A stretch of 64,000 bases of DNA, from the NCBI GenBank assembly GCA_041651415.1, contig JBAZJH010000003.1:15309-79308 (forward strand). Direction: 5' to 3'. Shown here piece by piece: positions 6,027-63,337 of this stretch. The notes below the pieces were generated by a model that searched no databases, had not been told where the DNA came from, and worked only from the letters and a program-made list of their open reading frames with translations. Within the stretch, counting starts at the first letter, position 1. Every line of letters starts with the position of its first letter. Origin of the DNA: Minisyncoccota bacterium (lineage in GTDB: Bacteria; Patescibacteriota; Minisyncoccia; UBA6257; XYB1-36-10). The position numbers and the translations under genes were made by a program.

Positions 6027-7073
6027 TTAAAGAGTGATATCTTTGGGGCGAAGAGGATTATCCAAAATATAACTTAATTTTTCATAGTTTTCAACAACAG
6101 AACCAATGCCGCGAATGGCGCAAGTCAGAGGCTCATCAACAACATAAGTCGAGATGCTGGTTTCTTTTTCTATCAATTCTCCCATACCGCGAAGAAGAGC
6201 GCTGCCGCCGGAAAGATAAATCCCCTGCTTTAACATATCGCCGACAAGCTCAGGCGGAGCCGATTCGATTATTTCGCGAACGGATTCAACGATGATTTTA
6301 ATCGGCTTTAAGATGGCAGAACGAGCATGAGTGCCGCGGACAATCACTTCGCGCGGCAAGCCGGAAGAAATATCGCGGCCGCGAACATTCATTTCCAGTT
6401 TTTCCCCGCCGGCGATAACGCCGGCGATATTTATTTTAATGTCTTCAGCGGTAGCTTCGCCGATAATAAGCTTAAATTCGTCTTTGACAAATTTAGAAAT
6501 TTCCTGATTGAGTTCATCGCCGGCAATTTTGAGACTTCTTGATATAACAATTCCACCCATAGAAATAATGGCGATTTCAGTCAGGCCGCCACCGATATCG
6601 ACGATAAGGTTGGAAGTCGGGTCTTCAATAGGAAGATTGGCGCCAAGAGCGGCGGCAATAGGCTCTTCGATGAGATGGGCATGACCGCCGCCCGCGCCGA
6701 TAACGGCATCCTCCACGGATTTTCTCTCAACTTCAGTCAAGTTGCTTGGAATACCGATAACAACTTTTTGAAAATTAAGGAGATTGGAATTATTAACCTT
6801 GCGCAAAAGAATTTTAAGCATTTCTTGAGTCATTTCAAAATCGGAAATAACGCCGCTTTTTAAGGGATGAATCACATCAATATGGAGAGGAGTGCGGCCA
6901 AGCATTTTTTTGGCTTCTTCGCCAACCGAAAGAATCTGCCCGGATTTGGAGTTGACGGCGGCGATACAAGGTTCGTTTACAACAATTCCCCTGCCTTTCG
7001 CATAAACCAAGACATTCGAAGTGCCAAGGTCAATGCCGATATCTTTGCCAAAAAATTTAAAAGGATTAAACAA
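6027..7073 (-). CDS. mreB: rod shape-determining protein MreB (actin-like)
   Basis: IGIDLGTSNVLVY, DIGGG, actin-fold phosphate motifs; TTG start. Confidence 0.9.
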   Translation of the reverse strand: MFNPFKFFGKDIGIDLGTSNVLVYAKGRGIVVNEPCIAAVNSKSGQILSVGEEAKKMLGRTPLHIDVIHPLKSGVISDFEMTQEMLKILLRKVNNSNLLNFQKVVIGIPSNLTEVERKSVEDAVIGAGGGHAHLIEEPIAAALGANLPIEDPTSNLIVDIGGGLTEIAIISMGGIVISRSLKIAGDELNQEISKFVKDEFKLIIGEATAEDIKINIAGVIAGGEKLEMNVRGRDISSGLPREVIVRGTHARSAILKPIKIIVESVREIIESAPPELVGDMLKQGIYLSGGSALLRGMGELIEKETSISTYVVDEPLTCAIRGIGSVVENYEKLSYILDNPLRPKDITL

Positions 7074-11135: not shown

Positions 11136-12143
11136 TTATCTTTTATTCAGGAGAGTCCTCTTATAAATATCCAAGTGGCTCAAAATAATTCCAGTGCCTT
11201 TAGCCACGCAATAAAGCGGCTCTTCCGCTTGATAAGTCGGAACGCCCAAAATTCTTTCGAAAAATTCATCAAGATTACGCAGGAGAGCACCGCCGCCCGA
11301 GAGAATAATTCCTTTATCCATAATATCGGCAACGAGCTCCGGCGGAGTGTTGTTAAAAACGCTTTGAACAGCGGAAGCAATGTCGTTTAAAAAATGCCCG
11401 AGAGCTTCAGCCATTTCGTTCGAGGTGACGATAAGATCTTTCGGCAAGCCGGAAATAAGGTCAAGGCCGCGAAGATTAAATTCCAATTTGTCTTTCAAGG
11501 GAAGAGCCGAGCCGATGGAAATTTTTACGTTTTCCGCCATTTGTTCGCCGATAGACAATGAATGCTTCTTTTTAATGTAGTCAATTATGGATTGGTCAAA
11601 TTTATTGCCGGCAACGCGGAGAGATTCCCAAGCAACGATGCCGCCCAAAGAAACAACGGCGACTTCGGCGGTGCCGCCGCCGATATTAACAATCATATTA
11701 CCGCAGTGAGAATTAATAGGAATGCCGGCGCCGAGAGCCGCCAAAATCGGTTCGCGGACAATAAAGACTTCTTTGGCGCCAGCTTCTTTCGCCGCATTCA
11801 TAACTGCGCGGCGCTCAGTCGGAGTGATGCCAGCCGGAACGGAAATAACAACTTCGGGGCGGATAACGTTAAAACGGCCGACAGCTTTATTGATAAAATA
11901 AGAAAGCATCGCTTTCGTAATGTAATAGTCGGCAATGACGCCGTCTTTTAAGGGGCGGTAAGAAATAATGTCTTCGGGAGTGCGGCCAAGCATTTCTTTA
12001 GCTTCACGGCCGACAGCCAAAACTTTATTTTCCGGTTTAGTAAGCGCAACGATAGTCGGTTCATTGATAATAAATCCCCGTCCCGGAACGAAGACGATAG
12101 TATTAGCAGTGCCAAGGTCGATGCCTATTTTTTTAGTGAACAT
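11136..12143 (-). CDS. MreB/Mbl actin-like paralog
   Basis: IGIDLGTANTIVF, NIGGGTAEV motifs; second MreB homolog in window. Confidence 0.85.
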   Translation of the reverse strand: MFTKKIGIDLGTANTIVFVPGRGFIINEPTIVALTKPENKVLAVGREAKEMLGRTPEDIISYRPLKDGVIADYYITKAMLSYFINKAVGRFNVIRPEVVISVPAGITPTERRAVMNAAKEAGAKEVFIVREPILAALGAGIPINSHCGNMIVNIGGGTAEVAVVSLGGIVAWESLRVAGNKFDQSIIDYIKKKHSLSIGEQMAENVKISIGSALPLKDKLEFNLRGLDLISGLPKDLIVTSNEMAEALGHFLNDIASAVQSVFNNTPPELVADIMDKGIILSGGGALLRNLDEFFERILGVPTYQAEEPLYCVAKGTGIILSHLDIYKRTLLNKR

Positions 12144-23536: not shown

Positions 23537-23590
23537 AAGATAAATTATAACATAAAAAAGAGCGCCTGCTTTTTAAACAGACGCTTTAAA

Positions 23591-24232
23591 TCAAAAAAAA
23601 TCAAATTCATCGCCGCGAAGAAGAAAACTTTTTTGAATAGTCCGAACCGCTCTTTTAAAAGATTGACGGACAGCTTCGGGAGTTATTTTTAGAAGACGAG
23701 CCACCTCTTTAAGAGTTCTCGGTTTTCTGTCTATTTCAAGAAATCTAAGCCGGATAACTTCCTTTTGCCTTTCCGTAAGAAGAGAAAGAGCTTTTTTTAA
23801 GAAAACGGATTTTTTCTTTCTCATTTCCCGAGAAGAAAGAGAATCTCTCGGAGAAGGAATATTCGAAACAAGATCGGAAAAGAAAGAAAAATAAGAATCA
23901 TCGTTTTCAAAAACAAGTTTCTGACTTTTAGGTTCTAATTCAAACCTTAAAATTTCTTCAATCTGCCTCAAAATTTTGAAATCAAGGTAAGTCACCAATC
24001 GACAGTCTTTAGAAAAATCAAAGCCTTTAATTGCTTCCCAAACGGCGATTTGTCCGGCGCGCATCAAATCGGAAAAAGAAAGCTTTAAAAAGGGATATTT
24101 TTTCCTAAATTCCGACATCTTTTTAGTAATCCAGTTTTCTTGGCTCTTAAAAAGGATTTCGAGCGCTTCCGAGTCGCCGTCTTTAGCTTTTGCGATAAGA
24201 AGATATTCTTCTTCTTTTTTCAGCCTATTCAT
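23591..24232 (-). CDS. RNA polymerase sigma factor, sigma-70 family (region 2 and region 4)
   Basis: Region 2 (FSDLMRAGQIAVWEAIKGFDFSKDCRLVTYLDFKILRQI) and region 4 HTH (RKPRTLKEVARLLKITPEAVRQSFKRAV). Confidence 0.7.
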   Translation of the reverse strand: MNRLKKEEEYLLIAKAKDGDSEALEILFKSQENWITKKMSEFRKKYPFLKLSFSDLMRAGQIAVWEAIKGFDFSKDCRLVTYLDFKILRQIEEILRFELEPKSQKLVFENDDSYFSFFSDLVSNIPSPRDSLSSREMRKKKSVFLKKALSLLTERQKEVIRLRFLEIDRKPRTLKEVARLLKITPEAVRQSFKRAVRTIQKSFLLRGDEFDFF

Positions 24233-24323
24233 AAGAAAAATCTCCTTTTAAAAAAGTTTGGCGTAAAAGAACTGATTTAAAAATAAAAGAAAAAAAGAAA
24301 GAAATCAATCAAACTTCGCAGCC

Positions 24324-24473
24324 TCAACGGCCGTGAAGTTTGATTTTTCGAAAGCCGTTTCTTTCCGTGTTTTTAAGACGCTTATAGAGACCAAACATAG
24401 AACGAAAAGAAGAAGGGGTGCGATAAGCCACGTTTTTTTTATTGCCAAGCTTGGAATAGTTTTTGGTTTTCAT
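24324..24473 (-). CDS. small basic protein (49 aa), hypothetical
   Basis: Manual translation MKTKNYSKLGNKKNVAYRTPSSFRSMFGLYKRLKNTERNGFRKIKLHGR, 9 nt downstream of PfkB stop on same strand; competes with plus-strand ORF 24333..24569. Confidence 0.3.
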   Translation of the reverse strand: MKTKNYSKLGNKKNVAYRTPSSFRSMFGLYKRLKNTERNGFRKIKLHGR

Positions 24474-24482
24474 AAAAAAATT

Positions 24483-35052: not shown

Positions 35053-35104
35053 TGATTTCCAGCAATATTCAGGAACGCTTTTGCGTTCCTTTTTTTTATT
35101 AAAT

Positions 35105-35175
35105 CTTCGCAAAAACCCCGCTCTAGGCGAGATAAAACTTTAAGATTCCGCGGCCGTAAGGCCGCGGAGTTTCAT
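35105..35175 (-). repeat. conserved two-hairpin 3' element, copy B (after murF)
   Basis: Reverse complement CTCCGCGGCCTTACGGCCGCGGAATCTTAAAGTTTTATCTCGCCTAGAGCGGGGTTTTT matches copy at 42741-42806 with compensatory stem changes. Confidence 0.45.
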
Positions 35176-35182
35176 TTAAAAA

Positions 35183-36640
35183 TCAGAGATAATTGTCCGG
35201 CCAGTCGTTTTGAAAAAGAATCACGTCTCCTTCTTTTAAAATACCGAAAAGAGAATTTTGGAGTTCAGGCATAGAATTAAATTCTTTAATATTTTCTGCC
35301 GAAAAACCGGATTCAAGAAGCCCTTTTTTAATAAAGCCGGAAGCGGAGGTTTTAATAAGAAGAACAAGGTCGGCGACGCGGCTTAAATCACGCCCGATTC
35401 CAAAATGAACGCGTTCCATATCTTTTCCCATTTCCACCAAACCCGGGGTGGCAAAAATTTTTCTTCTGCTTGAAAATCTTTCAAGGGTTGAAACAGCTTC
35501 TTTAACACCTTCGGGATTGCCGTTATAGCTGTCGTCAATCACCAAAATATTATTGCCGCGGCGAGAAAGATTCAGGCGATGCGGAGCGGGACGCGCTTCA
35601 AAAACTCCCCGCAAAATTTCTTGTTCGGAAAGACCGAAAAATTGACCGATTAAAGCGGAGGCAGAAACAACGCCGATAATATAAGAAGGAAGAAAACCGG
35701 TTTTAAAAGGTCCGAGATCTTGGCCGGAACTCGAAAGAATAAATTCCAAACCGGAACCGTCTTCTAAAAATTTCAGGCCGCGGGGATTAAATTTGGAGAG
35801 ATGATTAGGTTTCGAGGAAAAGAAAAAAACTTTTCTATTGCCAAGATATTTTTCAAAATTAGCCACGATCTTGCTATCGTCGGCATTAAAGAAAACGGAA
35901 GCGTTATTTTTAGAAAAACGGACGATTTCAAATTTAGCGGAAATTGTGTTTGCCAAATTGCCAAAACGTTCCAGATGGCTTTCATTAATGCCGGTTAAAA
36001 CAGCGACATCGGGAGGAGCGAGAAGACAAAGCTCTTTGATGTCCCCTTTTTTGTAGGCGCCCATCTCCACAATAAAGATTTCCGTTTCAGGAGGAAGTTC
36101 TTTCAGAATAAATCTCGCAATACCAAGAGGCGTGTTGATATTTTCAGGAGTTTTGGCAACTTTAAATTTTTCAGAAAGAACGGAAAAAATCATTTCTTTC
36201 ATGGTGGTTTTGCCATAGCTTCCGGTGATGCCGATTATTTTTATTTTAGAGAGGCGAGAAAGTTTCTTTTTGGCGCGAGAGACGATGAATTTTTTTGCCA
36301 GAAAATCAAAAGGAGAAAGAAGCCAAGAAGAAATAAGGAGAGGGAGAAAGAAAAAATAAGATAAAAAAACAAAAGAAAGGAATAGAATAAAAATTTTTAA
36401 AAATAGAGAAGCGGTTTTAAAAAAAGGAAACCAGAAAATCAAAAGCGGGAGAAAAAAAAGGAGGAGAACAGAAAGAGAAAACAAAAGGACAGCTTTTAAG
36501 GTAAAGACTAGTTCCTGTCTTCTTAAATTTTTTGAGGAAAAAAGGCGGGAAAAAGAAAGCTTCAGAAAGCGAAAACGGCTGTAGTTCTCAAGCTGGAAGA
36601 GGTAGAGAAAAAAAGTGAAATGATTAAAAAACGATGACAT
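35183..36640 (-). CDS. murF: UDP-MurNAc-tripeptide--D-Ala-D-Ala ligase with atypical hydrophobic N-terminal extension
   Basis: GITGSYGKTTMKEMI P-loop, Mur ligase middle and C-terminal domains; first about 130 codons Phe/Leu-rich TM-like instead of usual N-domain. Confidence 0.8.
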   Translation of the reverse strand: MSSFFNHFTFFLYLFQLENYSRFRFLKLSFSRLFSSKNLRRQELVFTLKAVLLFSLSVLLLFFLPLLIFWFPFFKTASLFLKIFILFLSFVFLSYFFFLPLLISSWLLSPFDFLAKKFIVSRAKKKLSRLSKIKIIGITGSYGKTTMKEMIFSVLSEKFKVAKTPENINTPLGIARFILKELPPETEIFIVEMGAYKKGDIKELCLLAPPDVAVLTGINESHLERFGNLANTISAKFEIVRFSKNNASVFFNADDSKIVANFEKYLGNRKVFFFSSKPNHLSKFNPRGLKFLEDGSGLEFILSSSGQDLGPFKTGFLPSYIIGVVSASALIGQFFGLSEQEILRGVFEARPAPHRLNLSRRGNNILVIDDSYNGNPEGVKEAVSTLERFSSRRKIFATPGLVEMGKDMERVHFGIGRDLSRVADLVLLIKTSASGFIKKGLLESGFSAENIKEFNSMPELQNSLFGILKEGDVILFQNDWPDNYL

Positions 36641-38234: not shown

Positions 38235-38342
38235 ATTTTATTATCCTCTTAATCCGCCAGTTGGCGGAGGAGCACAATTTTTTAGCTTTAGTAATAAATC
38301 TTTTGAAGCTCCGATATAATCGGAGCCCCGATAAAATCGGGG

Positions 38343-38414
38343 TGGGTGTGGGAGGGATCGGACCTCCGGCCTCTGTCTTATCAGGACAGCGTTCTACCAC
38401 TGAACTACACACCC
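38343..38414 (-). tRNA. tRNA-Ile(GAT)
   Basis: GGGTGTGTAGTTCAGTGGTAGAACGCTGTCCTGATAAGACAGAGGCCGGAGGTCCGATCCCTCCCACACCCA; anticodon GAT. Confidence 0.85.
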
Positions 38415-38686
38415 CTTTTGAATAGCCAAGGAAAATTATTATCAGTTATAACCTTATTGATAATATCTTTCCTTTTGTATTTTTTCAATTTATATTCAAA
38501 ACCTCTCGCTTGTCTTAACGATTCACACTCAAGAAAAGATTCTAAAACAAGAGGCCTGATATTCTTTGTTGACAGCACTCTTCCGGAAATATGGTCTTTA
38601 AATCTTCTTTCAATATTGTCAGTGCTTCCTATATAAAATCTTTTATTTTTTAAACTTCTTAATATATAAACACCGCTTTTCTTCAT
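38405..38686 (-). CDS. GIY-YIG domain nuclease (small, 93 aa)
   Basis: GVYILRSLKNKRFYIGSTDNIERRFKDH = GIY-YIG motif with catalytic Arg/Glu context; stop codon TAG lies inside tRNA-Ile acceptor/D-arm (GGGTGTGTAG). Confidence 0.7.
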   Translation of the reverse strand: MKKSGVYILRSLKNKRFYIGSTDNIERRFKDHISGRVLSTKNIRPLVLESFLECESLRQARGFEYKLKKYKRKDIINKVITDNNFPWLFKRGV

Positions 38687-40703: not shown

Positions 40704-42740
40704 ATGGCCAAATTAGTAATTGTGGAATCGCCGACCAAGGCAAACACTATCGGAAAATTTTTAGGAAAAGATTATATTGTGGATTCTTCTTTCGGGCATG
40801 TTCGGGATTTGCCGAAAAGCAAACTCGGCATAGACACAGAAAAAAATTTCGAGCCACAATACGTGATTCCAACCAAGGCGCGCAAGCAAGTAAATAAACT
40901 AAAGAAAGAGGCGGCAAAAGCGGAAGAAGTGATTCTCGCGACTGACGAGGACCGCGAGGGAGAAGCAATCGCCTATCATTTGGTGGAAGTTTTAGATTTA
41001 CAAAAAAAAGAAAGCGAAGGAAAAGTGAAAAGAATCGCATTTCACGAGATAACGGAAGAAGCGATAGCGGAAGCTTTGGAAAATCCGAGAGAAATAAATT
41101 ATCACTTGGTAAACGCGCAACAGGCGAGAAGGATTTTAGACCGACTGGTCGGATATAAGCTCTCCCCTTTCTTATGGAAAAAAGTGATGAGAGGGCTTTC
41201 CGCCGGCAGAGTGCAATCGGTGGCGGTGAGACTAATCGCCGAGAGAGAAAAAGAAATAAGAGGATTCAAACCGGAAGAATATTATACCATCTCCGGGCTT
41301 TTCACTTTTTCCGGACGAGAACCGGTTCTTTTCAATCTTTATAAAATAGAAGGAGAAGCGATTGAAAAGCCGGGCATAAAAGGAAAAGAAAAAGCGGAGG
41401 AAATCATAGCGGATTTAAAAGAAGCCAAACATAAAGTTCTTAAGATAACAAAGAAGGAGGTGAAGAGAAATCCCCTGCCGCCGTTTATCACAAGCACGCT
41501 GCAGCAGGAAGGCGCGAGACGATTGGGATTTTCTTCCAAAAAAACCATGATGCTGGCGCAAAGACTTTACGAAAACGGACTCATCACTTATATGAGAACC
41601 GATTCGGTGAATATTTCCAAAGAAGCGCTCGCGGCAGCGGAAAAATTAATAAAAGAAAAATACGGAGAAAAATACAGCTTGTCAAAACCGAGAAGATTCA
41701 CGGGGAAATCAAAATTGGCGCAAGAAGCGCACGAAGTGATAAGGCCGGCAAAGCCGAAGATATTGCCGGAAGATTTAAGCGCGGAAAAAGACGAAAAAAG
41801 ACTTTATGATTTAATCTGGAAGAGATTTATTTCCAGCCAAATGCCGCAAGCCGTGATGTCGGCGACCGCAATAGAAATGGCATCAGAAAATGGGAAGAAA
41901 AAATACGCTTTCAGAGCGAACGGAAACATAATGATTTTTGACGGATTTTTGAAAGTCTGGCCGGCCAGCGTGAAAGAAGAAATTTTGCCGGAAATAAAAG
42001 AAAAAGAATCGCCGGAAAAAGCGGAAATAAAAGAAGAACAGCACTTTACCGAACCGCCGGCGAGATTCAACGAAGCAAGCTTAATAAAAACCATGGAAGA
42101 AAACGGCATTGGCCGGCCATCCACTTACGCTTCCATAATCTCCGTGATTCAAACAAGAAATTACGTGAAAAAGAACGAGCAGAAAAGGTTTGAGCCGACG
42201 GAAATCGGAGAGAAAGTGAATGACCTTTTAATGGAGCATTTCCCAAAAATAGTCGATATCGGATTTACAGCCGACATCGAAGAAGAGTTAGACGAAGTGG
42301 CTTTAGGAGTTTCCAAATGGCAGGAAATTATCAGAGAATTTTATGAGCCGTTTAATAAAAGATTGGAAGAAAAATACAAGGAAGTAGAAAAGAAAGACAT
42401 TATGCCGGAAGAAAAAACGGATGAGAAATGCGAAAAATGCGGGAAAGCGATGGTAATAAAAATGGGAAGATTCGGAAAGTTTATGGCTTGTTCCGGATTT
42501 CCGGAATGCAAGAACACCAAAAAAGTGGAAGGAGGCGGAGCGATTGTTGGAAGATTCGAGCCGCAAAAAACAGGACTTCCCTGCCCCGACTGCAAAGTGG
42601 GAGAAATAGTTTCAAGGAGAGTTTCTAAAGGAAGAGCGCGCGGGAAGATTTTCTGGGGATGTTCAAGGTATCCGGAGTGTAAATACGCCAGTTGGGAAAA
42701 TCCGGCGAAAAAAGATAAAGAAAATTCCGACGCTCAATAA
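40704..42740 (+). CDS. topA: DNA topoisomerase I
   Basis: TOPRIM N-terminus (VIVESPTKANTIGKFLG), catalytic Tyr region, two C-terminal C4 zinc ribbons. Confidence 0.9.
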   Translation: MAKLVIVESPTKANTIGKFLGKDYIVDSSFGHVRDLPKSKLGIDTEKNFEPQYVIPTKARKQVNKLKKEAAKAEEVILATDEDREGEAIAYHLVEVLDLQKKESEGKVKRIAFHEITEEAIAEALENPREINYHLVNAQQARRILDRLVGYKLSPFLWKKVMRGLSAGRVQSVAVRLIAEREKEIRGFKPEEYYTISGLFTFSGREPVLFNLYKIEGEAIEKPGIKGKEKAEEIIADLKEAKHKVLKITKKEVKRNPLPPFITSTLQQEGARRLGFSSKKTMMLAQRLYENGLITYMRTDSVNISKEALAAAEKLIKEKYGEKYSLSKPRRFTGKSKLAQEAHEVIRPAKPKILPEDLSAEKDEKRLYDLIWKRFISSQMPQAVMSATAIEMASENGKKKYAFRANGNIMIFDGFLKVWPASVKEEILPEIKEKESPEKAEIKEEQHFTEPPARFNEASLIKTMEENGIGRPSTYASIISVIQTRNYVKKNEQKRFEPTEIGEKVNDLLMEHFPKIVDIGFTADIEEELDEVALGVSKWQEIIREFYEPFNKRLEEKYKEVEKKDIMPEEKTDEKCEKCGKAMVIKMGRFGKFMACSGFPECKNTKKVEGGGAIVGRFEPQKTGLPCPDCKVGEIVSRRVSKGRARGKIFWGCSRYPECKYASWENPAKKDKENSDAQ

Positions 42741-42806
42741 AACTCCATGGCCTTACGGCCGTAGAATCTTAAAGTTTCACCCTGTCTGTGGCGGGGTTTT
42801 ATTAAA
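42741..42806 (+). repeat. conserved two-hairpin 3' element, copy A (after topA)
   Basis: CTCCATGGCCTTACGGCCGTAGAATCTTAAAGTTTCACCCTGTCTGTGGCGGGGTTTTATT; second hairpin plus U-tract resembles intrinsic terminator. Confidence 0.45.
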
Positions 42807-56096: not shown

Positions 56097-56891
56097 TTAC
56101 AAATATCTCCTTATGTTAGCGATATGTTCTTCCAAAGTTTTGCTGAAAATGGTTTTTTTTGTCTTTGGATCACTTAGATAATACCAGTAAGGCGAGCTTT
56201 TCGCCTCCAAAACCGACATTATCGCCTCTTCCCCAGGATTTGAGATGGGAGCAGGCGGCAAGCCCTTGTATTTATAAGTGTTATAAGGAGAGTCGACTTC
56301 CTTGTCTTGTTTTGTTAAAGGATAACAGCTTTTCAAACCAGAGTCAACTTCGGCTTCAGTTTTCGCCAAGTTGTTAATCGAGTAAGCGTGGCTTTTAACA
56401 TAGCATAAGGAAGCATCGATTTGCAAGGGCATGCCGGTTTCCAGTCTTTTTAAAAGAATTCCGGCCACTATTTTTCTTTCTTCAAAGCGAGGCACTTCTC
56501 TTTCAATCAAGGAAGCCAGAATAAGATTGCGGTCATAATTGGCGGAATCTTTTGAAAGAAGCGGGTCGGCTTTTTTATAAAAATTTTCCAAAATCTTTTC
56601 AACAACAACGACAGCGCTGGAATCTTTAAAAAAACGGTAAGTGTCCGGAAAAAGACGCCCTTCAAGAGGACGTCCTAAAGCAAGAAGACTTTCGCCATTT
56701 TTAAAAATTCCCAAATCTTTCAAGTTGTCGTCTATTTCACGAACAGTCTGACCTTCATAAATAACCACTGTTATTTCTCTCGGTTCTTTTTTATTTCTAA
56801 GTAAAAAAAATTCAAAAATAAAAAAAACGCCGAGAACGATTAGAGCGGCTGTAAAAACCGGTTTTCCAAGCTGTTTAAGAACGTAAAGCAA
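56097..56891 (-). CDS. mltG: YceG/MltG-like endolytic murein transglycosylase
   Basis: N-terminal TM, C-terminal YNTYKYKGLPPAPISNPG YceG signature. Confidence 0.75.
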   Translation of the reverse strand: MLYVLKQLGKPVFTAALIVLGVFFIFEFFLLRNKKEPREITVVIYEGQTVREIDDNLKDLGIFKNGESLLALGRPLEGRLFPDTYRFFKDSSAVVVVEKILENFYKKADPLLSKDSANYDRNLILASLIEREVPRFEERKIVAGILLKRLETGMPLQIDASLCYVKSHAYSINNLAKTEAEVDSGLKSCYPLTKQDKEVDSPYNTYKYKGLPPAPISNPGEEAIMSVLEAKSSPYWYYLSDPKTKKTIFSKTLEEHIANIRRYL

Positions 56892-57933
56892 TTGAATTTA
56901 TTATAGCCACCATAATAAAACTCGTCAATAAGTTGGAACCTCCGTAGCTTACAAAAGGAAAAGGCAGACCAATAACAGGAGTGAGGCCGAGAGCGGAACC
57001 GGCATTTAAGATAAAATGAATGCTGAAAATTATAACCGCACCAAGACAGACAAACCGGTCAAAATTGTCGGAAGCAAAATAAACGCTGATGCCGATTATT
57101 TCATAAATAAGAAAAGCGAAAGATAAAATAAGAAGAAGACCGCCAAGAAGTCCCCACTCTTCAATAGCGCCCGCAAGAATAAAATCCGTTTGGGCTTCCG
57201 GCAAAAATCCGAGCTGAATTTGAGTCCCCTGTCCAAAACCTTTGCCAAAAAAACCGCCAGAGCCGATGGCAATTTTTGATTGAATAACATTATAGTTTAT
57301 GCCAAGCGGGTCCCGCTCCGGATAAAAAACTCCGGCGATTCTTTCTTTTTGATAAGGAGCTAAAAAATAAGACCAAGCCAGGATAAAGCCAGCAATCAAA
57401 ATAAAAGAACCGACGAGAAGATGCTTAAAACGAAGCCCGCTAATTAAGAGAAAACCAAGCCACATACCGAAAAGAACAATAGTGGAGCCAAGGTCCGGCT
57501 GTTTTAAAATAAGAAGCGCGGGAAGAAAAAAAATAAAAAAAGGAATCAGAATATTTTTCAAATGAGCGAGACCGGTATAGCGTTTAGCAAAAAAATAAGC
57601 GAAAAGAAGAAGAAGAGAAATTTTTACAAGTTCCGCCGGTTGAAAATTAAATAAGCCGAAATGAATCCAGCCCTTAATGCCTCTTATCGGAGAAGAAAAA
57701 AGGGCGGCGACAAGAAGCGCGAGAGAAAAAAAATAAAAAAAGACCAAAAGTTCCCGATTTTTTATAATTCCCCGCAAATCAAAAAACCAGAAGAAAACAA
57801 CAATCAAAGTTCCGAGAATCACCCAAAATAACTGAGACCAAAATAAGGAAAAATTGATGCTTGAAATCACAAGCAAACCTAAGAAAGAAAGAAAATAAAC
57901 AGGAAAAAGAAGCTTAAAAGAAGAAGAAAACAT
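56875..57933 (-). CDS. SEDS-family peptidoglycan glycosyltransferase (FtsW/RodA)
   Basis: 10-TM SEDS architecture, conserved PELVK.. and C-terminal SYGGSNLL-like motif. Confidence 0.8.
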   Translation of the reverse strand: MFSSSFKLLFPVYFLSFLGLLVISSINFSLFWSQLFWVILGTLIVVFFWFFDLRGIIKNRELLVFFYFFSLALLVAALFSSPIRGIKGWIHFGLFNFQPAELVKISLLLLFAYFFAKRYTGLAHLKNILIPFFIFFLPALLILKQPDLGSTIVLFGMWLGFLLISGLRFKHLLVGSFILIAGFILAWSYFLAPYQKERIAGVFYPERDPLGINYNVIQSKIAIGSGGFFGKGFGQGTQIQLGFLPEAQTDFILAGAIEEWGLLGGLLLILSFAFLIYEIIGISVYFASDNFDRFVCLGAVIIFSIHFILNAGSALGLTPVIGLPFPFVSYGGSNLLTSFIMVAIINSIALRS

Positions 57934-58774: not shown

Positions 58775-58889
58775 ATGCCGGCAAAACCTACTTTCGCCCC
58801 GAAGGACTATCATCGGTTCCGCGCCGTTTCACTTCCGAGTTCGGAATGGATCGGGTGTTTCCAGCGCGAGTTAATCACCGGCAAACCAA
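58775..58889 (-). rRNA. rrf: 5S ribosomal RNA
   Basis: GGTTTGCCGGTGATTAACTCGCGCTGGAAACACCCGATCCATTCCGAACTCGGAAGTGAAACGGCGCGGAACCGATGATAG...GCCGGCAT; helix I pairing of ends, loop C/E consensus (CCGAAC, AGTGAAAC). Confidence 0.8.
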
Positions 58890-59160
58890 AACTCTTTTTT
58901 GGTTTACTTTGAAAAGCCAAATAAAACGAAGTTTCACGCGGCTTTATTAAAACCGCAGTTGAACTTCACCCCGACCAAAGCCGGGGTTTATCAAATCTTA
59001 AAGATTTAATAAAAAAACAAAACATATCTCTTTAATCATCCCACCATTGAGATGATCGGATAGGCCATTAGTACTCCTTGGCTAAACGCGTTGCCGCGCT
59101 TACACCTAGAGCCTATCAACGTGATAGTCTTTCACGAGGCCATATATCTAATCTTGGGAG

Positions 59161-59194
<34 letters not shown>

Positions 59195-59335
59195 CGTCCG
59201 AACATAGCTACCCAGCACTTCAGTTGGTACCAAAGCTGGTAGACCAGAGGTTCGTCCAACCCGGTCCTCTCGTACTAGGGTCAGCTTCCCTCAAATATTA
59301 ACGCCTGCAGCAGATAGAGACCAACCTGTCTCACG

Positions 59336-60078
59336 CATAAATTTTTTTCATTTATTACTAAATGGATCGGACTATACCATCACCCCGACCAAACTGTCGG
59401 GGGACTGACGTATTAGCATTCACTTGAACGCTCTGTTTTTAAAAACAAGTCTCTACGGGGTCAATGCACGTTCTTTTCTTCTTTTGGAATAATTAAGTTC
59501 GCGATAGCGATTAATAATTTTAAGAAGATTTTTGAAATCGTTAGCATTTTTAATTGTCTTTTTTCGCCGGATAATTTCAAGCATAAGATTTATTTGTTTC
59601 TTTTTTAAAACCGAATAAGGTTTTATCGCCTTTAGAAATTCTTGAATATCTTCGATTTTTCCTATAACACATTCGAGAATTCCATCAGAACGAATACGGA
59701 GTTTTCCGCATCCGACAAGAGAACAAATTTCTTCAAAGCTTTTTTGACATTTTTTTGATTGGAAAAAAACAACATAAAGCGCTATCTGAAAACCGTATCG
59801 ATAAGTTCGATTCGGCTTCGCTTGCGCATAAATGCTGCCATCACCATCAAGAAAACCAGCGATATAGGACTTTTTTATTTTGGATAACGATTTTAACATA
59901 CACGACTTCCCTCGGTATTATCCTAACATATGACAGGTTGAAAATCATATGAGGACTTCACCGATATGAGTCAGTTTATTCAGTCCACATTACTGTGGCT
60001 CCGATATTTTAATCGGAGTTCTGACTTTTAAAGTCAGAAAAAGCCGCCGTTTTTTTTATTACCTCGTGTTCAATTTTG
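59336..60078 (-). mobile_element. group I intron in 23S domain V at/near the I-CreI-type site (E. coli about 2593), carrying a LAGLIDADG ORF
   Basis: About 743-nt insertion between ...GGTTCAAACCGT and CGTGAGACAGGTTGG exon sequences; ends with G; contains HE ORF. Confidence 0.8.
59453..59899 (-). CDS. LAGLIDADG homing endonuclease (intron-encoded)
   Basis: IAGFLDGDGSIYAQ LAGLIDADG motif; single-motif about 148 aa (I-CreI-like homodimer type). Confidence 0.85.
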   Translation of the reverse strand: MLKSLSKIKKSYIAGFLDGDGSIYAQAKPNRTYRYGFQIALYVVFFQSKKCQKSFEEICSLVGCGKLRIRSDGILECVIGKIEDIQEFLKAIKPYSVLKKKQINLMLEIIRRKKTIKNANDFKNLLKIINRYRELNYSKRRKERALTP

Positions 60079-60210
60079 ACGGTTTGAACCCAGCTCGCGT
60101 ACCTTTTTAATTGGCGAACAGCCAAACGCTTGGGACCTTCTCCAGCCCCGCGCTAAGATGAGCCGACATCGAGGTGCCGAACCGCGCCGTCGCTATGGAC
60201 GCTCGGGCGC

Positions 60211-60241
<31 letters not shown>

Positions 60242-61582
60242 GCCGTTGTCTCCGACCTTCCTGTAAAGGTTCGTCGGGTCACTAAGTTCTGCTTTCGCAT
60301 CTGCTCGACTTGTAAGTCTTGCAGTTAAGCCGGCTTATGCCTTTACACATTAGGCTCGATTTCCATCCGAGCCAAGCCGACCTTTAAACTCCTCCGTTAC
60401 TTTTTAGGAGGATTCCGCCCCAGAAAAACTGCCCGCCAGACACTGTTCCAATAAAGTTTACCTTTCGGACTCTTTATCGGTTAGAACTTAAATCATTAAA
60501 GGGTGGTATCTCATTTGCGGCTCCACTCTGACCGAAATCAAAGTTTCAAAGCCTGCCACCTATGCTGCGCAGCAACAATTTAAGGCCAATATCAAGCTAC
60601 AGTAAAGCTCCCGGGGTCTTTTCGTCCCGCTGCAGGTATCCCGCGTCTTCACGGGAATCGCATTTTCACCGAGCTTCTCGCTGAGACAGTTCTCCAGTCG
60701 TTACACCTTTCGTGCGCTCCGGAACTTACCCGGAAAGGAATTGCGCTACCTTAGAACGATTATAGTTATCGCTGACATTGACGAGGGCTTCGGGCAGTCA
60801 GCACGCGCTGCGCGCAAGTTATAAAGTTTATAAAGTTGAAAGTTAAAAGTATTTGTTTTTACTTTTTGAACTTTATGAACTTTTTTCTTTATAAACTGCG
60901 TGCAACGCATACCGCCACCGTTAACCTTCTCGCATCGGTCAGGTGTCACCCCCTATACATCCACTTGCGTGTTAGCAGGGAGCTGTGTTTTTGGTAAACA
61001 GTCGCCAGAGAAACTTTAGCTGCGGGTCCGATAAAATCGGACCAGGCCTTATTGCGAACTTACGGCCGCTTTTTTGCCGAGTTCCTTAGCGAGAAATCAC
61101 TCGTTCTCCTTGGGCTCCTCGCCCTATCCACCTGTGTCGGTTTCCGGTACGGATACCTATAAATTAACCCTAGAGGCTTTTCTTGGAAGGCTCTTCAGCC
61201 AAATCGCCTTAGCCAAAGCTAAAGCTTTCGCCTTATTTTGAAGTTTCCATTAAAGGAAGACGCGCGCATTTGTCGCGAGCCGCTTCTTAAATATAGCAAC
61301 GCCAAACCATTAAGGCGTTTGACCTTATTTCCTCCGTCCCCCCGTTAGAATTTATAGGCAGGGCTGGAATATTAACCAGCTACCCATCGGCTGCGGCTTT
61401 CGCCATCGCCTTAGGACCGCCTAACCCGTGGATGATTGCCAGTGCCACGGAAACCTTGAATTTTCGGAGAGCCGATTTCCCATCGGCTTTGTGGTTACTC
61501 ATGCCAGCATTCTCTCTTCCATCCGCTCCACGAGCCCTCGCGGGTCTCGCTTCGGCGCAAATGGAATGCTCTCCTACCACCA

Positions 61583-61680
61583 GCCCCACTTTTGTTCGTG
61601 ATATCAATATAACTTATCAGCGTTTTAAAAAATATCGCTGTTAATTTTTGAATCAACGTCATAAACAAAAGTGGAGCTGG
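61583..61680 (-). other. extended AU-rich hairpin in 23S helix-45 region (candidate intervening sequence)
   Basis: CCACTTTTGTT...AACAAAAGTGG long stem replacing the about 22-nt helix-45 tip, a classical IVS site. Confidence 0.45.
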
Positions 61681-63337
61681 TCCGCAACGTCGGTAGCTTA
61701 CTTAGCCCCGCACATTTTCGGCGCGCCTTGCCATTCGTCATAAAGGCGAATCGAATAGTGAGTTGTTACACACTCTTTAAAGGATGGCTACCTCTGAGCC
61801 CACCTCCTATCTGTCTATGGCACGACACTACCTCCTTTGCACTTAGTAAGCATTTAGGGACCTTAGTTGGCGGTCTGGGCTGTTTCCCTTTCGAACATGG
61901 AGCTTAGCCCCCACATTCTAACTCCCGAGCTATATTGTATGGTATTCGGAGTTTGATTAGTCTGGCGGAGTTTCCCCCTACTCAGACTATCCAGTGCTCT
62001 ACCCCCACACATAAACGCTCAAGGCTAGCCCTAAAGCTATTTCGGAGAGAACCAGCTATTACCGAGTTCGATTAGCTTTTCACTCCTTACCCCAGTTCAT
62101 CCGAAGATTTTGAACGGTCTACCGGTTCGGGCTTCCCTCCGATTTTCATCGGAGTTCACCCTGACCAGGGCAAGCTCACCCGGCTTCGGGTCTTATCCGG
62201 CTCCTCATACGCGCTATTAACGCTCGCTTTCACTACGCCTTCCTCCCGTAGGAGTTAGACAAAGGAGACAGATAAACTCGCTGGCTCATTCTTCAATAGG
62301 CACACGGTTACCCTTACGGGCTTCCGTTCCTTGTAAGCATAAGGTTTCAGATTCTATTTCATCGGCCTCACCGGCCTGCTTTTCACCTTTCCCTCACGGT
62401 ACTAGTTCGCTATCGGTCGCCAAGGATATTTAGCCTTACGAGACAGTTCTCGCAGATTCCCTCGAAGTGTTCATTTCTCGAGGTACTTAAGGATAAATAC
62501 GAAAAGTTTGTTTGTTTTCGCCTACGGGGCTTTCACCCTCTTTGGCGCGGCTTTCCAGCACGCTTCCGCTAACAAACAAATTTTTGACTTTTCTCCCAGC
62601 CAATAACTCTTCCATAAAAATTTTTAAAGAAGAGTTATTAGCTGAAAATGTACTTACCTTACAACCCTTAATTTTCAGCAAGCTGAAAATTCAGTTTAGG
62701 CTCTTCCCCGTTCGCTCGCCGCTACTAAGGGAATCATAGTTATTTTATCTTCCTCCGGGTACTGAGATGTTTCACTTCCCCGGGTGCGCTCTCCGACCGA
62801 AGTCAGAGTTGCAAGAGTTTATCTTGCAGGGTTTCCCCATTTGGAAATTCTCGGATCATAGGTTGCTACACACCTTCCCGAGACGTTTCGCCGCTACGCC
62901 GCGTCCTTCATCGCTCCTTGGTGCCAAGGCATCCACCTTACGCTCTTAATTCCGACCATCTCAATAATGAGATAGTTTTTGAACCCATTCCTATAAAATA
63001 GGCGAGGGTTCTTGATTAGAGAATGCTTTGCTTTTTATTTTACCTTCGCGCTCTTTTGGCGCGAAAGAATACCTGTTATTTTACTTAGCTTTTCAGTTGT
63101 AAACGTTCCGTCGAGGCATTCGTTAAACTTCCTTTTCTTTCAGCCTGGAATCTTTTTTAAAAAGAGCCCAGGCCGAGAGAAAAAGCGGATTCAATTTTAC
63201 TAAACTTTTTGCCTAAAAGCAAGGAGGGAAAAATAGAGATAAAAAAACCGCGTTTTACGCGGCTACAACAACCAAACACAGGACTTTTTTAGCCGCTTGT
63301 TTTTTGTTCTTTTTCCTTGATACTCATAAGCTTTTTT

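Follow-up and report, generated by a model that had tools for sequence, protein, structure and literature searches.

A putative terminator-carrying mobile repeat at gene ends in a lineage of Candidatus Paceibacterota

The 64-kb stretch of DNA analysed here (the window) contains, downstream of murF and of topA, two copies of an element that is probably a lineage-restricted, non-autonomous mobile repeat carrying an intrinsic terminator, which, judging from its sequence, targets gene ends at sites of the AAAAT^AAAA type and restores any stop codon that it interrupts. The element, which is ~75–125 nt long, appears to be MITE-like and, in its function, SPRITE-like, and to belong to a narrow lineage of Candidatus Paceibacterota (CPR). 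The initial annotation had offered a terminator family with an extra upstream stem, a small 3′-UTR-derived sRNA and a REP/MITE-like unit as possible readings. The last of these is supported by filled and empty sites at two unrelated loci, by dispersed copies in both orientations, and by constant ends and a constant target.

The element and its copies

Reading of the sequence reveals two ~75-nt elements in opposite orientation, one 3′ of murF (minus strand) and one 3′ of topA (plus strand). This agrees with the initial annotation, apart from the extents, which are corrected to 35098–35173 and 42739–~42811. A search for the pattern GGCC-N4-GGCC-N3-GAATCTTAAAGTTT finds exactly two occurrences in the window, and none in 100 shuffles that preserve dinucleotides. 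Alignment of the two copies, referred to as w1 and w2, shows identity over AAACTCC..GGCCTTACGGCCG..GAATCTTAAAGTTT and over GCGGGGTTTT. The initial annotation had proposed folding both copies and looking for more of them; each folds into two hairpins with a U-run after the second (z = −3.9 and −2.5). The gene upstream of w1 is murF (UDP-MurNAc-tripeptide--D-Ala-D-Ala ligase; 35183..36640, minus strand) and that upstream of w2 is topA (type I DNA topoisomerase; 40704..42740, plus strand), as evidenced by Pfam matches of the two ORFs to Mur ligase and type I topoisomerase and by identical database proteins from a "Candidatus Paceibacterota bacterium" MAG that are named MurF and type I DNA topoisomerase. 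Elsewhere in the window, two MreB/Mbl paralogs lie within 6 kb of one another (6027–7073 and 11136–12143, both minus strand) in the company of MreC and a PBP2-like transpeptidase; with a RodA/FtsW-family protein at 56875–57933, these make up a full rod-shape machinery in a CPR genome.

Copy w1 is a short form of 76 nt (35098..35173, minus strand) that begins 9 nt past the murF stop, where the junction reads TGA-TTTTTAAAT followed by GAAACT. From its left end, 5′-GAAACTCC, it continues on the minus strand through hairpin 1 (35147–35168), the linker GAATCTTAAAGTTT.. (35133–35146), hairpin 2 (35116–35132) and a T5 run (35111–35115) to the right end, GCGAAGATTTAAT-3′ (35098–35110), a tail that belongs to the element. 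Copy w2 is a core form on the plus strand (42739..~42811, the right limit being approximate). Its left end, AAAACTCC, starts at 42739 and is followed by hairpin 1 (42744–42765), the linker (42766–42779), hairpin 2 (42780–42796), which is flagged as terminator-like, TTTTATTA (42797–42804) and, after 42804, ATTAAACCTT, a stub of the 3′ module described below. Homology with the other copies identifies the last two A residues of the topA TAA stop (42738–42740) with the first two of w2, such that the stop straddles the junction. Neither copy therefore begins right after the stop codon, as had been described, w1 lying 9 nt beyond it and w2 overlapping it.

We scanned a metagenome collection with the pattern GCC-N4-GGC-N4-GAATCTTAAAGTTT and recovered five more copies, all on a pair of long contigs from the same JGI metagenome (Ga0265297_10000188 and Ga0265297_10000099), neither of which is the window. 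These copies adjoin unrelated genes (GDSL lipase/grpE, FtsX/glycerate-kinase-like and CsgG-like) and occur in both orientations. Two diverged copies, w3 and w4, were recovered from the window itself with a core-based covariance model and a long-form HMM. The core set comprises seven copies (w1, w2, L001, L002, L003, L004 and L005). The metagenome pattern fixes the linker, and linker conservation is partly due to how the copies were found; the invariance of the linker among the metagenome copies therefore carries no weight, and only its identity between w1 and w2, which were found without a search pattern, does.

The copies are non-coding, 76–124 nt long and dispersed among unrelated neighbours, at a density of ~1 per 20–100 kb of sampled sequence. 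Their alignment defines a common core of ~70 nt, consisting of AAT followed by RAAACTYC, hairpin 1, GAATCTTAAAGTTT-CAC, a GC-rich hairpin 2 and TTTTATTA. Hairpin 1 is a 9-bp stem with a GGCC core, in which the inner stem is invariant and the loop is variable (six sequences in seven copies). The conserved linker AAUCUUAAAGUUU separates it from hairpin 2, which is GC-rich and is followed by UUUUAUUA. The second hairpin had been described as a 5-bp stem plus U-tract; the U-tract stands, while the stem has 7–8 pairs, including G·U. Four copies have an extra ~55-nt 3′ module that ends in AGATTTAAT and forms a third hairpin (ATTAAATCTT...AAGATTTAAT; ATTAAATCTTTACCGC ... GCGGAGATTTAAT). Copy w1 ends in ...GCGGGGTTTTTGCGAAGATTTAAT, and is thus equivalent to the long form minus the stretch between two GCGGGGTTTT repeats; short forms of this kind seem to have arisen by internal deletion between these repeats. 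Two versions of the third-hairpin arms are found, CCGCGAAAAC/GTTTTCGCGG and CCGCTTCAAAC/GTTTGAAGCGG. The arms are matched in L001 and L004, and L002 (5469–5527) and L003 (5745–5802) contain one arm of each type, so that their third hairpins pair poorly. On the sequence, the mixed arms suggest recombination between copies of the element.

The first of the diverged copies, w3, is 88 nt long (58923..59010, plus strand; covariance model score 19.8 bits, nhmmer E = 6e-6) and has the ends of the other copies, reading AAAT before AAAAC ... AAGATTTAAT and AAAA after it. Its hairpin 1 is different or inverted, its hairpin 2 matches the one in L002 almost exactly, and its 3′ module has collapsed to ATCAAATCTTAAAGATTTAAT. 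It is located antisense to the rRNA operon in the spacer of ~1.1 kb (58883–60007) between 23S (60008–62958, minus strand) and 5S (58776–58882, minus strand). The same spacer also holds a LAGLIDADG homing-endonuclease-like ORF of 148 aa (59453–59899, minus strand; Pfam E = 1.4e-9), which lies outside the 23S gene since the 23S match is full length without a large insertion. Another nuclease-domain ORF, a stand-alone GIY-YIG ORF of 93 aa (38405–38686, minus strand), slightly overlaps tRNA-Ile (38341–38414, minus strand) within a tRNA-Ile/Val/Ala cluster, apart from the rRNA genes.

The weakest member is w4, a degenerate fragment (24309..24342, minus strand; 23.1 bits, E = 0.045) recognized also by its left-end motif, for which homology to the element is probable rather than certain. 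It reads AAT, then CAAACTTCACGGCC-GTTGA-GGCTGCGAAGTTTGA, then a T-rich run, and consists of the left end and a hairpin 1 that lacks the TCTTAAA bulge; hairpin 2 is absent. The copy overlaps a small, very basic ORF of ~47–50 aa (MKTKNYSKLG...RTPSSFRSMFGL.KRLKN.ERNGFR) directly downstream of pfkB, at ~24325–24475 (minus strand) in the window and at 11559–11702 in the relative L008. The C-terminus of this ORF is altered relative to L008 (..RKIKLHGR* instead of ..RRIREK*) because it reads into the hairpin of w4. A segment of ~790 nt (~23559–24349, minus strand), which contains w4 and an ORF (23591–24232; 213 aa) whose product has a sigma-70 region 4 domain, is absent from the syntenic interval between pfkB and the gene for a 414-aa protein in L008, where a 52-nt spacer with a different terminator is found. 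We considered the sigma-70-like ORF as cargo or transposase and rejected it, since this is an ordinary gene for a sigma-like factor that has a terminator of its own and lacks a matching right end.

Searches outside these loci indicate that the family is narrow, as no true match was found in GTDB, IMG/VR, phage and plasmid records or Rfam. Exact-pattern scans of GTDB species-representative genomes gave no match and then a single chance match in GC-rich Verrucomicrobia sequence, motif scans of IMG/VR viral contigs gave none, and BLAST against phage and plasmid records found no match. At the gathering threshold, the Rfam matches in the window are rRNA and tRNA only; at an E-value threshold, the best scores on the element are 16–27 bits against gathering scores of 50–60, and no family is assigned. 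Element models found no further copy in ~8 kb more of the source contig, and full-text searches of the literature on such repeats in Patescibacteria returned nothing relevant. Since dprA adjoins topA, a DNA uptake sequence was also considered; the idea was rejected on the size and density that characterize DUS/USS.

Insertion sites, ends and target

The case for mobility is carried by sites that are filled in one genome and uninterrupted in its relatives. Orthologous murF loci were reached via MurF homologs in L008 and L009 (both 74% identical) and L010 (89%). In these relatives the site is uninterrupted, with TTTTTAAAT joined to AAAAAAAAG-terminator, and all three read murF stop, TTTTTAAAT, AAAAAAAAGAGCGC-loop-GCGCTC, a hairpin flanked by A- and T-runs and common to a convergent small ORF. 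In the window, the same stretch reads murF stop, TTTTTAAAT, the element (GAAACTCC...76 nt...GAAGATTTAAT) and AAAAAAAAGGAACGC-loop-GCGTTCC. The 76 nt are therefore a precise insertion relative to L008, L009 and L010, and the flanks rejoin exactly. The native terminator hairpin at this site, AGGAACGC-TTTT-GCGTTCCT (35071..35090, plus strand), is followed by a T-run on the plus strand, and the A-run on its other side, which is A8 when read on the murF strand, is where w1 inserted; in the relatives, the equivalent hairpin directly follows TTTTTAAAT.

A second filled and empty pair is found at the GDSL-lipase site. In L003 this site reads GAAAAAT, the element (GAAACTTC...122 nt...GATTTAAT) and AAATCAGATTTTAT, and in the 84%-identical ortholog L017 it is uninterrupted, with GATAATT joined to AAAACAGATTTTTT. 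The comparison places the element after the T of the original TAA stop, where its own GA restores an in-frame TGA. The grpE promoter downstream is kept in both L003 and L017. A promoter-like CTTGACG-N17-TAGAAT/TAAAAT upstream of grpE is conserved in three related genomes, at L003 (5840–5880), L017 (3820–3860) and L019 (2727–2766), whether the element is inserted or not. At topA, the element is absent from the topA–relA spacer of L012, a 92%-identical relative. This spacer is wholly different and has its own terminator, AAAACCGGC-GAATA-GCCGGTTTTT; we therefore take it as evidence of absence and rejected it as a clean empty site. A covariance model search of ~67 kb of the relatives' loci found no copy.

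The element has constant ends, 5′-RAAACTYC ... RAGATTTAAT-3′. For each of the six copies whose two ends are defined, the boundaries are the same, from RAAAC... to ...AGATTTAAT (AAC in L001), and the target is an A-rich AAAAT^AAAA-type site, with ...AAAAT as the left flank (AAAAA in L004) and AAAA... as the right flank. Three of these six targets immediately precede, on the 5′ side, the A-tract of a native GC-rich terminator hairpin. The junction splits a stop codon in w2, L002 and L003. The rejoined target contains TAA, so that in these three junction and stop codon coincide, which explains the impression in the initial annotation that the copies begin right after the stop. Insertion is often between the T and AA of a TAA stop or at the A-tract of a native terminator, and the GA or AA of the element then rebuilds the stop.

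Four of the six full copies are flanked by AAT on both sides, and the repeat is imperfect in L001 (AAT/AAC) and L004 (AAA/AAT). As AAT is invariant between copies, a 3-bp target duplication is not distinguishable from a target/end motif; the repeat may be such a duplication, with weak inverted ends, or a motif for cleavage at target and right end, as in IS200/IS605. Compared by eye, the left end GAAACTTCACG and the reverse-complemented right end AAATCTTCGCG agree at 5–8 of 10–11 positions across copies, and RAAWCTTCRCG at about 7–8 of 11; the match is imperfect, short and rich in A and T. Neither a transposase nor a recombinase or HUH domain was found among the window's 61 ORFs, 53 of which were scanned, with the other eight covered by Pfam annotation computed beforehand for the same or orthologous loci. 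Nor was an autonomous copy or a parent IS with matching ends found in the 64-kb window or the loci searched with element models. A transposase or recombinase encoded elsewhere would move the element in trans, presumably by recognizing its ends and/or its hairpins. The likeness between the murF and topA copies would reflect common descent from a mobile element, and no shared regulatory role.

Termination, RNA structure and alternative explanations

Intrinsic terminators were called on a GC-rich stem of at least 5 bp, a loop of 3–8 nt and a U-rich tract thereafter, downstream of a gene. On these criteria, hairpin 2 with its U-tract is a predicted terminator in five of the seven core copies (w2, L001, L002, L004 and L005). 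It is a borderline case in w1, where a stem with G·U pairs precedes UUUUUGCG, and there it falls short of a simple T-tract criterion; in L003 it is weak as a terminator. Read in the antisense direction, hairpin 1 followed by AAGTTTYATTT, a tail made up of the element's left end and the AAAT of the target, is a predicted terminator in four of the seven. The combination of hairpin 2 in sense and hairpin 1 in antisense looks, from its sequence, like a terminator cassette usable both ways. Four copies (w1, w2, L002 and L003), and probably L001, are sense-downstream of genes; L004 lies between co-directional genes and is antisense to both neighbours, and L005 lies between divergent genes. This range of positions (sense, antisense, divergent and rRNA spacer) would fit a two-way cassette. 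Between topA and relA/spoT, w2 is the only predicted terminator, and the relative has a native one there. The idea of a terminator family thus survives insofar as a hairpin and U-tract resembling a terminator form part of the element. A candidate outward promoter in the 3′ module (TTGACA ... TTTAAT) was rejected, given its spacer of 19–20 nt and that it was not called in the scan.

After insertion, hairpin 2 and the U-tract would terminate sense transcription, and hairpin 1 with AAGUUUYAUUU, formed together with the flank, could terminate antisense transcription. With termination in both directions, insertions at gene ends would be tolerated, and might even replace native terminators, as for example between topA and relA.

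The conservation of sequence well beyond what a Rho-independent terminator needs raises the question of whether the element is instead a domesticated, factor-dependent terminator motif, spread by gene conversion with no transposition, in which a protein recognizes a bulged hairpin 1 or the linker. The analogy would be with TRIT (Tuberculosis Rho-independent terminator motif) of Mycobacterium, which Gardner et al. (2011) found in 147 copies per genome, making up the majority of the stable 3′ structures (PMC3152330). Like the present element, TRIT is sequence-conserved, palindromic, largely bidirectional in its terminator-like features, tied to stop codons and confined to a narrow group, in its case one genus (PMC3152330), and the narrow distance to the stop codon in several of our copies is as reported for TRIT (PMC3152330). 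A basal stem UGAAAC/GUUUCA that leaves a AAUCUUAA bulge, predicted in some copies, could serve in such recognition. This extended stem was not adopted, as it is broken by A·C mismatches in three of the seven copies. The present family, in contrast to TRIT, is rare and demonstrably inserted relative to close relatives, and most terminators in the window are ordinary hairpins. The insertions are precise and the ends fixed, and they include a 3′ module downstream of the terminator, for which a pure terminator motif would have no need. Together, these observations make a domesticated motif unlikely.

An active, terminator-seeking mobile cassette is an equally long shot. It would possibly involve a new type of recombinase in CPR, specific for the T/AA junction of a stop or the A-tract of a terminator, and a co-opted bidirectional terminator whose bulged hairpin 1 (AAUCUUAA) binds a dedicated protein. 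If true, it would mean that minimal genomes contain mobile, exchangeable gene-end modules.

The initial annotation had favoured a selected RNA structure, on the basis of compensatory variation between a palindromic and a non-palindromic first hairpin. The palindrome used in that comparison, TACGGCCGTA, is non-homologous to the stem it was set against. When the first stems of w1 and w2 are aligned homologously, one compensatory pair (G-C/A-U), one C-G to U·G change and one C·A mismatch are seen, such that only a single pair is truly compensatory. In the covariation test across the seven copies, 91% of cells pair and no more than 2 of the 16 pairs show double changes, a level that 117 of 500 column shuffles also reach. 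Folding energy reveals no strand preference; hairpin 1 gives −15.9 in sense and −18.5 in antisense, and hairpin 2 gives −10.5 and −10.0. Compensatory variation as a sign of selected RNA structure is not supported. Indeed, kept stems with varying loops are what any palindromic mobile repeat would show, and do not single out an RNA function.

A host-selected structured RNA, either a conserved 3′-UTR element or a 3′-UTR-derived small RNA, is accordingly improbable, and somewhat more so than the two explanations above. Its presence downstream of several genes would be due to independent recruitment or to selective retention. Its hairpins and the single-stranded AAUCUUAAAGUUU linker would act in trans or bind a protein. 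The folds are stable (z = −2.5 to −9 vs shuffles), double changes are seen at two pairs of hairpin 1, many pairs are G·U, the linker is identical in w1 and w2, and ~5 of the nine copies (seven core and two diverged) are sense-downstream of a gene, all of which speak for such an RNA. Against this, the element is absent at the orthologous sites of relatives whose flanking proteins are 74–92% identical, and the antisense strand folds as well or better. Moreover, L004, L005 and w3 are placed antisense to both neighbours, between divergent genes and antisense in the rRNA operon, respectively. The element belongs to no Rfam family, which together with its absence from the relatives' sites speaks against the 3′-UTR-derived sRNA suggested at first, and, as it abuts the stop codon, it has no space for its own promoter.

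Least probable of all is a REP/REPIN-type or IS200/IS605-derived (PATE-like) element, moved as single-stranded DNA by a single-copy HUH tyrosine transposase and inserted 3′ of AAAT without duplication. The fixed left flank (AAAT, with AAT invariant) and the similar right end TTTAAT are what left and right cleavage sites of an IS200/IS605 PATE would look like, the hairpins are prominent on both strands, and there are no convincing terminal inverted repeats. IS608-type ends, however, have left and right hairpins that are related in sequence, and here hairpin 1 and the right-end hairpin are unrelated. With REP, BIME and REPIN sequences and their RAYT, the element shares imperfect palindromes downstream of genes in either orientation, a non-autonomous nature and a proposed role at mRNA ends or as terminators (PMC3733652, PMC3337134). 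It differs in being a composite of different hairpins with non-palindromic ends and in its far lower copy number (~1 per 20–100 kb), and no RAYT gene, that is, no Y1_Tnp (Y1 HUH) domain, is seen among the window ORFs scanned or previously annotated. A REP is further defined by a GTAG or CGTC tag at one end of a 20–40-nt palindrome (PMC3733652). Hairpin 1 reads YNNGGCC-loop-GGCCGYRG and has no such 5′ tag; GTAG occurs in only four of the seven copies, on the 3′ side and inside the stem, where the CTAC...GTAG polarity varies (GTGG, GCGG).

Relation to known repeats and implications

Streptococcus pneumoniae, with a genome of ~2.2 Mb, carries the SPRITE repeat at roughly 1 per 70 kb, and we regard SPRITE as the closest analogue of the present family, by analogy of function and architecture only. 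SPRITE is an AT-rich, non-coding repeat of <200 bp with a stem and a U-rich tract, located near gene 3′ ends and between convergent pairs (PMC3049150). It is present in 30 copies per genome in one species group, has no known matching IS, transposase or target duplication and no obvious TIR, and is thought to be tolerated or co-opted as a terminator (PMC3049150). The likeness is drawn from its description; no sequence relationship is claimed, and the phylum is a different one (Paceibacterota/CPR). The present element has two to three hairpins that are terminator-like in both directions, whereas SPRITE has one 18-bp duplex, and empty sites here define the AAAAT^AAAA target and the exact ends, which the authors of the SPRITE work could not do.

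MITEs are the other natural comparison. As in MITEs, the copies are short, dispersed and non-coding, with precise filled and empty sites at murF and at GDSL-lipase/grpE. In Correia elements the TIRs are clear and 26 bp long, and the duplication is TA. In contrast, this family has weak TIRs (about 8 of 11) and an invariant AAT repeat, and a parent IS was not seen. With Correia and other prokaryotic MITEs the family has in common a length of <500 bp, AT-richness, an intergenic location, strong folding, truncated or modular variants, and the capacity of such elements to affect neighbouring transcripts (PMC10969869).

Small interspersed repeats have hardly been described in CPR/Patescibacteria. 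The family is a clean, small example of a terminator-carrying mobile element at stop codons and terminator A-tracts. Reduced CPR genomes are usually thought to be repeat-poor. Elements of this kind can pass for conserved regulatory RNAs or sRNAs in comparative scans, and they are usable as strain-level markers in metagenomes. Since MITE-, SPRITE- and TRIT-like repeats at gene ends are already known in other phyla, the finding extends this picture without changing it. The mobilizing enzyme and the apparent preference for stop codons and terminator A-tracts could raise its interest.
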